NCBI GenBank assembly: GCA_041659405.1
Contig: JBAZYK010000001.1
Span: forward strand, 120,001-152,000
Length of the DNA: 32,000 nucleotides
Direction of reading: 5' to 3'
Source of the DNA: Candidatus Altimarinota bacterium
Lineage (GTDB): Bacteria; Patescibacteriota; Gracilibacteria; UBA1369
This document shows, piece by piece, positions 10,916 to 11,108 of this stretch. The notes below the pieces were generated by a model. It did not search any database and had not been told where the DNA came from. It saw nothing but the letters and a program-made list of their open reading frames with translations. Within the stretch, counting starts at the first letter, position 1. Every line of letters begins with the position of its first letter. Made by a program: the position numbers and the translations under genes.

Positions 10916-11108
10916 GTTCAGTATTTATTTTCTTGCTGTGAACGCTTCGCCTGTTCGCTGCGGACTTGCTTTGTACGCGAAGCGGACGAATGTGCTCGCC
11001 CGTTTCGCCCTCGGTCGTTGCCCTCGGGTACGCCTCCGCGAAGGTCTCGCATCATGATGCTCGACCGGCTGCGCTCGCAATGTCACAGCAAGAAAATAAA
11101 TACTGAAC
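10916..11108. repeat. 193-bp element with perfect 26-bp terminal inverted repeats around a GC-rich structured core (MITE-like or long hairpin)
   Basis: GTTCAGTATTTATTTTCTTGCTGTGA (10916-10941) is the exact reverse complement of 11083-11108. The 141-nt core is markedly GC-rich and has internal stems (CGCTTCGC 10943-10950 / GCGAAGCG 10977-10984; palindrome GCATCATGATGC). No flanking target-site duplication is visible. Confidence 0.8.

Follow-up and report, generated by a model that had tools for sequence, protein, structure and literature searches.

A 193-bp element (10916-11108) with inverted ends and a G+C-rich centre lies beside uvrA in the stretch of DNA analysed here (the window, 32,000 nt of contig JBAZYK010000001.1), raising the question of whether it is a mobile element, a structured RNA or a regulatory site serving the genes around it. 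A sequence-only reading of the window had described a perfect 26-nt inverted repeat, and the two arms (10916-10941 and 11083-11108) are indeed exact reverse complements; such a repeat within 200 nt is expected by chance about 1e-9 times per 32 kb. Pairing reaches outward to 41 nt at 83% (10901-10941 with 11083-11123). The G+C-rich core between AT-rich arms was likewise correctly described, with 141 nt separating the arms and a G+C content of 63.8% in the core and 30.8% in the arms (41% for the whole window). As single-stranded DNA the element folds at -51 kcal/mol (z = -5.9), and as RNA from the uvrA-sense strand at -106 kcal/mol (z = -7.5); 0 of 200 shuffles were equally stable in either case. 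A proposed likeness of the core to a repeat called 'family 1' did not hold up, as only about 13 nt are shared with what is a different, 45-bp repeat.

The element is not a single-copy sequence. The source genome (G000) is a 1.51-Mb draft of 21 contigs, about 40% G+C and 98.5% complete, and a BLAST search of the element against it, the copy count that the earlier reading had called for, showed that the core recurs on six other contigs. A covariance model (R1) built from 11 other copies, with the window copy excluded from the building set, gave the window copy 108 bits (E = 1e-24), or 83 bits across model positions 20-127 when filters were switched off, and found 13 full copies in the genome, dispersed over 7 contigs, together with two further fragments. 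Each fragment (C9:62932-62979 and C14:15436-15487) consists of one arm and an adjoining piece of core, indicating that copies of this family decay. All copies in this genome are intergenic, in divergent, convergent and tandem gene contexts. A typical family member is 150-185 nt long and comprises an asymmetric, G+C-rich core of about 88 nt, made up of two hairpins (Pb and Pc) plus junction helices, and long arms whose sequence varies from copy to copy while their complementarity is kept. We considered whether the core alone inserts into existing palindromes; the genome contains no 'empty arms', and the two extra BLAST matches proved to be the fragments. We found no description of such repeats in Peregrinibacteria or in CPR bacteria in the literature, and the window copy belongs to an undescribed Peregrinibacteria hairpin repeat family.

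The family is patchily distributed. Of 36 genomes in the family-level group (G000 included), R1 was positive in 8, representing 5 of 25 genera, with 1-4 copies in each of the 7 positives among the 35 other genomes, and also in one genome from another family of the order. It found no copy in a same-genus genome (G001, 95% complete). Scanning 185,579 species genomes for the exact pattern gave 13 loci, of which the model confirmed 9, all in Candidatus Peregrinibacteria, Peribacteria or Gracilibacteria MAGs, and rejected the remaining 4, which came from other, non-CPR phyla. A pattern scan of metagenomes added 15 model-confirmed copies. A viral origin was considered and set aside, the sole IMG/VR pattern match not being confirmed by the model. 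Other lineages have had their own bursts, each with its own arm sequence. In one genome (G016, contig C1), two copies in opposite orientations flank murI (L048:481-622 and L048:1501-1638); one of them is AT-rich (35% G+C) and has kept both core hairpins, each with a ATCATGAT-type apex. This AT-rich copy and a G+C-rich copy in G020 (L043) both lie downstream of the same gene. In the source genome, two copies in the same orientation bracket a gene for a 503-aa protein with peptidoglycan-binding domains (C8:47208-49312), and directly beyond the pair is a gene for a VirD4/TraG-like type IV coupling protein.

Alignment to the model resolves the window copy, read on the plus strand, into its parts. 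The left arm (10916-10941), AT-rich and paired in 26 of 26 Watson-Crick positions with the right arm, forms the closing stem, and its final two bases (GA) are also the start of the conserved core motif GAACGC. The 5' module of the core (10940-10963), assigned by covariance-model alignment, supplies the GAACGCTTCGCC junction helices and the 5' strand of hairpin Pb and is identical at 24 of 24 positions to the main-subfamily copies on contigs C5 and C10 of the same genome. The 3' strand of Pb (CCTCCGCGAA; 11033-11042) follows an interruption described below, helices 4 and 5 covarying here. Hairpin Pc (11043-11066) is a 24-nt quasi-palindrome that has a CATG loop and is interrupted by a conserved internal TC/TC mismatch, with covariation in helices 6 and 7, and the 3' tail of the core (GGCTGCGCTCGCAATGTC; 11067-11084) pairs back with the 5' module in the model alignment. 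The right arm (11083-11108), the perfect complement of the left, completes the stem, which abuts the core directly at the junctions CTGT/GAACGC and ATGTC/ACAG, so that the GAACGC ... ATGTC borders by which the family is recognised are both present. Over two stretches of the core (10940-10963 and 11028-11084), identity to several other copies is 100%.

Two features set the window copy apart from its relatives. A G+C-rich insert of 69 nt (10964-11032) stands in place of the 12-nt apical Pb loop (CTAGCATGTACG), the model skipping 69 nt where it expects 12; this loop is invariant in the other copies and serves as a mark of membership, which the window copy lacks. The insert occurs nowhere else in the genome, and both the single-stranded DNA and the RNA folds predict that it adds a separate hairpin. 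We considered that it might be a partial tandem duplication of the core, but the likeness is one seen by eye, and shuffled sequences scored as well in the local alignment of insert against core in 130 of 500 cases for the forward strand and in 63 of 500 for the reverse. The arms, moreover, bear essentially no relation to main-subfamily arms and share only a short AT-rich stretch with one sub-lineage, a resemblance noted by eye that may be due to chance. The window copy is an aberrant, diverged member of the family whose core is otherwise normal, and because its conserved Pb loop has been destroyed, it is probably immobile.

The predicted fold is strongly conserved. Double-sided changes occur at 22 of 53 predicted pairs within the source genome, and across 38 copies 47 of 53 pairs covary, with covariation in all seven helices. 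In the 38-copy set, 94.8% of cells are paired, versus about 41% after the 3' partners have been shifted by 1-3 columns, and 0 of 500 shuffles reached the observed covariation or pairing values; the alignment was fitted to the R1 model and so favours structure, but the margin is large. The folding and covariation analysis proposed for the core on first reading thus finds a fold far beyond shuffled expectation. The loops and junctions are conserved across genera. Such compensatory base-pair changes are equally expected from a folded DNA strand, and the arms help to tell the two apart. Over 747 positions in the inner arms of 31 copies, 726 are Watson-Crick pairs (97%), and the 21 mismatches include 9 G.T and 9 A.C, with no wobble bias. 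Since an RNA helix should tolerate G.U on the transcribed strand, these symmetric counts suggest that each arm is corrected against the other as DNA, a reading that the overall arm pattern supports. When the outermost stem is included, in a longer alignment of the source-genome copies, G.U exceeds A.C on the model strand (21 versus 10), a difference that is not decisive. At one orthologous locus in two species of a single genus, the arms are 67-73% identical between species, and each species' pair is complementary.

The core is also oriented with respect to replication. With GC skew as the proxy for replication direction, in a draft assembly from an uncultured lineage, the G-rich strand is the one that matches the model in 13 of 13 copies of the source genome (two-sided p = 2.4e-4), or in 7 of 7 when counted by contig (p = 0.016): plus-strand copies are on C1, C5, C7 and C10, where skew is positive, and minus-strand copies on C6, C8 and C9, where it is negative. 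Gene orientation around the copies does not account for this polarity. The contig of the window copy, which lies on its plus strand, has a skew of +0.032, the local 30-kb skew being weak for this copy (+0.009). In other genomes, viewed in windows of about 13-20 kb, most copies fit the polarity and two copies in G016 do not; on short metagenome contigs it fits in 8 of 15 cases, and in 8 of 10 where absolute skew is at least 0.07. The G-rich strand usually carries the leading-strand sequence and hence the sequence of the lagging-strand template. By this rule, the model strand would be the one exposed single-stranded at the fork. The same replication-linked strand pattern is known from IS200/IS605 elements (PMC6006769). 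In the closed 1.49-Mb chromosome of G020 (C1, OZ246407.1), skew ranged from -0.12 to +0.01 in ten 20-kb samples, all negative or near zero. A circular chromosome with two replichores would not be expected to look like this, and the pattern may reflect an asymmetric origin and terminus or weak or atypical skew.

One pair of orthologous loci captures a reversal of the core. Two genomes of one genus (G016, L044:1501-1648 on C27; G045, L082:1501-1642 on C10) have collinear flanking genes and arms, and the 83-nt core matches at 77 of 83 positions (93%) after reverse complementing, versus 50 of 83 on the same strand. The inversion was seen between species at this one locus, not within a population, and the flipped G016 copy is one of the two exceptions to the polarity. 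Occasional recombination between the arms would flip the core in this way.

We looked for an enzyme that could move the family. The sequence-only reading had proposed a search for a cognate transposase with matching terminal inverted repeats, and none was found: Y1_Tnp (PF01797) had 0 matches at E <= 0.1 in the source genome, in the closed genome G020, which has 4 copies, and in G046 and G047, and the TnpB zinc-ribbon domain (Pfam) had no match in the source genome. Y1_Tnp genes are present in G016 and G045, and no hairpin lies within about 1.5 kb of them. These IS200/RAYT-type genes (six loci, L095-L101, in G045; G016:C1:112648-112995) come from one genus of the family, and Y1_Tnp was absent from the other hairpin carriers searched. 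A cargo-bearing or autonomous version of the element was sought between nearby copies, where the genes are ordinary and unrelated (a peptidoglycan-binding protein, rplJ-rplL, murI). The flanks of the window copy (...GTTCTAG and AAAGCAT...) share no direct repeat that could mark a target-site duplication, and we could define neither an excised form nor a clean empty site; the corresponding G001 spacer is not alignable.

These observations bear on the possible identities of the family in different ways. Elements of a classical MITE type, deletion derivatives of a DDE-type IS moved in trans through their terminal inverted repeats, are small, non-coding, multicopy and intergenic, and every hairpin copy does end in inverted repeats. 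The pattern of conservation, however, is the reverse of that of a MITE, in that the centre is conserved and the arms are unrelated among the window copy, the main subfamily, the copy at C8:21612 and other genera; there is also no direct repeat at the element ends, strand polarity is unexpected for DDE elements, and we found no IS with matching ends. The earlier suggestion of a non-autonomous transposon lacking a target-site duplication therefore survives in part, as the element is repeated, structured, without a visible duplication and absent from the G001 site, but its classical MITE form does not, given arms that differ between copies and no transposase with matching ends, and we regard it as highly improbable, the least probable of the readings weighed here. 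An inverton, in which the arms would be recombination sites and flipping of the core would toggle the flanking genes, here uvrA, is very unlikely. A segment flanked by inverted repeats and one natural inversion between species are what such a switch would show, but the arms are not conserved and offer no common recombinase site, the core holds no promoter-like site, the adjacent genes are unrelated housekeeping genes with no recombinase among them, and orientation is fixed in 13 of 13 copies of the source genome.

Two further readings fit more of the data. The family could be a multicopy structured RNA, either an sRNA gene or a cis-acting module (an RNase III substrate, mRNA stabiliser or attenuator), with the branched core as the functional RNA and a long stem that needs nothing beyond pairing. 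The very strong covariation in every helix, the cross-genus conservation of loops and junctions and the highly stable folds all favour it, as does the excess of G.U over A.C once the outermost stem is counted, and highly expressed RNA genes, too, are typically co-oriented with replication. Against it stand the equal numbers of G.T and A.C in the almost fully Watson-Crick inner arms, the lack of any conserved promoter or terminator accompanying the copies, gene contexts (divergent, convergent and tandem) that give no consistent sense, the core inverted between orthologous loci with its arms in place, and the lack of a matching Rfam family: Rfam 15 gave nothing at the gathering threshold in the window and nothing relevant at E <= 5 for five loci, and ARAGORN found no tRNA or tmRNA in the window. 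We consider a structured RNA unlikely; the sRNA option raised at the outset is weakened by the lack of G.U usage in the arms, the replication strand polarity and the core inversion. A polar DNA site kept by the host, a protein-binding or priming signal acting on one template strand in replication, repair or segregation (for primosome assembly or single-strand initiation, say, or as a polar fork or translocase signal), would account for an orientation that is polar with respect to replication, for a core conserved across genera and for a copy that persists downstream of the same gene in two genera (L043 versus L081). It is harder to reconcile with absence from 28 of 36 family-level genomes, a same-genus one included, with copy numbers of 1-13, with clustered, burst-like copies bearing lineage-specific arms and with the existence of decayed, partial copies, and we judge it to be quite unlikely.

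On balance, we favour, at somewhat better than even chances, a REPIN-like selfish hairpin DNA element that acts as folded single-stranded DNA and is moved by an enzyme other than a Y1/RAYT transposase. The hairpin family would then be selfish and non-autonomous, functioning as the folded single strand exposed on the lagging-strand template, which would explain the one-way orientation of the core relative to replication. The whole hairpin would be copied by an enzyme other than a Y1/RAYT transposase, and the arms would be kept perfect by intrastrand templated repair or conversion, not by selection on an RNA helix.

At the locus itself, the aberrant copy may still matter to its neighbour. The neighbouring genes named on first reading are all confirmed by Pfam: uvrA (7997-10888, minus strand), with UvrA domains, and, outside the element, the plus-strand toxin-antitoxin pair Phd/YefM (11340-11657) and ParE/RelE (11685-11984). 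Adjacency to uvrA also stands, with the start codon 27 nt from the element by our measurement instead of the 28 nt given earlier. On the far side of the element lies a conserved minus-strand block (11119-11207; 86.5% identity by BLAST over 89 nt with G001) that is probably the uvrA promoter region. It contains a minus-strand promoter-like site, with TTGCCC at 11194-11189, a 17-nt spacer ending in TGC and TAGCCT at 11171-11166; the arrangement TTGnnn-N17-TGC-TAnnnT is found upstream of uvrA in 5 of 6 related genomes examined, the sixth (G008) having the TGC-TAGCGT part behind a shorter or shifted spacer. In G001, whose uvrA is 89% identical, the element is missing between the gene and the conserved block. 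A simple sigma-70 scan found no promoter-like site in the arms or core of the element. The likely uvrA promoter thus lies outside the element, which sits between the promoter-like block and the start codon, that is, in the uvrA leader. Transcription of uvrA would probably begin near 11158 on the minus strand and run through the whole element, as its reverse complement, so that the mRNA leader would hold the predicted hairpin 27 nt ahead of the start codon. For a copy that is probably immobile, the remaining effect may be that of a very stable hairpin (about -100 kcal/mol) in this leader. The conserved block also contains an 18-bp palindrome (TTTAACCTTTAGGTTAAA; 11125-11142), which we rejected as a regulon-wide operator as it has no second good copy in the genome; for the same reason, it may be an operator specific to uvrA.

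The toxin-antitoxin operon appears to use a promoter/operator region of its own near 11289-11365, about 180 nt further to the right. The earlier expectation that the element must either carry or displace the promoters of both flanking transcription units is not borne out by this arrangement, with the conserved block to the right of the element and a separate region for the operon. From 11208 to 12300, the window holds the Phd/YefM-ParE/RelE pair and a following 102-aa ORF with no counterpart at the G001 site, where a convergent minus-strand gene occupies the place of the module. By this comparison, the toxin-antitoxin module is a lineage-specific insertion or loss, separate from the hairpin.

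How the family compares with described systems sharpens what is unusual about it. The known systems it works most like are REPINs and IS200/IS605-type single-stranded DNA elements, yet it fails the tests that define either. REPINs and BIMEs are mobilised by RAYT/TnpA-REP (PMC3116915, PMC3337134, PMC6006769). Like the hairpin family, REPINs are short, intergenic, non-coding repeats that form a long hairpin, number in the tens of copies, are believed to function as single-stranded DNA and combine largely vertical inheritance with bursts within genomes. They differ in having a RAYT/Y1 gene, of which there is none in the source genome or in closed G020, and in having conserved REP arms around a free spacer, the reverse of the conserved centre and free arms seen here; nor did we see by eye a consistent counterpart of the 5' GT[AG]G foot of REPs. 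IS200/IS605 elements (IS608, ISDra2; PMC6006769) share with the family an orientation tied to replication, the recognition of imperfect DNA hairpins and the lack of conserved terminal inverted repeats and of target duplication. They encode TnpA/TnpB and carry two subterminal hairpins around a gene, in contrast to a single whole hairpin with neither gene. Integron attC sites are likewise folded single-stranded DNA sites whose structure is kept more than their sequence, but they occur in cassette arrays and have extrahelical bases and conserved outer R and L boxes, unlike hairpins that are dispersed singly and have perfect stems, a conserved centre and variable outer parts. ERIC/IRU repeats of enterobacteria and Correia/NEMIS repeats of Neisseria resemble the family as intergenic hairpin repeats of about 100-200 nt that join neighbouring mRNAs, as the window copy would do in the uvrA leader. 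The arms of ERIC/IRU and Correia/NEMIS are conserved family-wide, and Correia elements have TA duplications and IS-like ends; we know of no description of replication polarity or of a conserved branched centre for either group. The labels classical MITE, attC site and described RNA family do not apply to the hairpin family.

REPIN-like hairpin repeats are the best-studied long-lived replicators in bacterial genomes, and to our knowledge, the well-understood cases all depend on a RAYT transposase. More tentatively, and with less confidence than we place in a REPIN-like element as such, we propose that the hairpins represent a new class of replication-coupled hairpin single-stranded DNA element, one that spreads without an IS200/RAYT-type Y1/HUH transposase: a CPR enzyme would recognise the twin-hairpin core, and the arms would be free-running palindromes corrected within the strand. 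If true, this would be a replicator that needs only self-complementarity outside its core. For annotation, G+C-rich intergenic hairpins of this type in Peregrinibacteria are to be read as repeats and not as unique regulators or sRNA genes. In the ultra-small genomes of CPR bacteria, a hairpin family that combines a fixed centre with free arms, follows replication polarity and has no recognisable Y1 transposase offers a tractable case in which to study the upkeep of perfect palindromes and the enzyme that acts on folded single-stranded DNA in these organisms.
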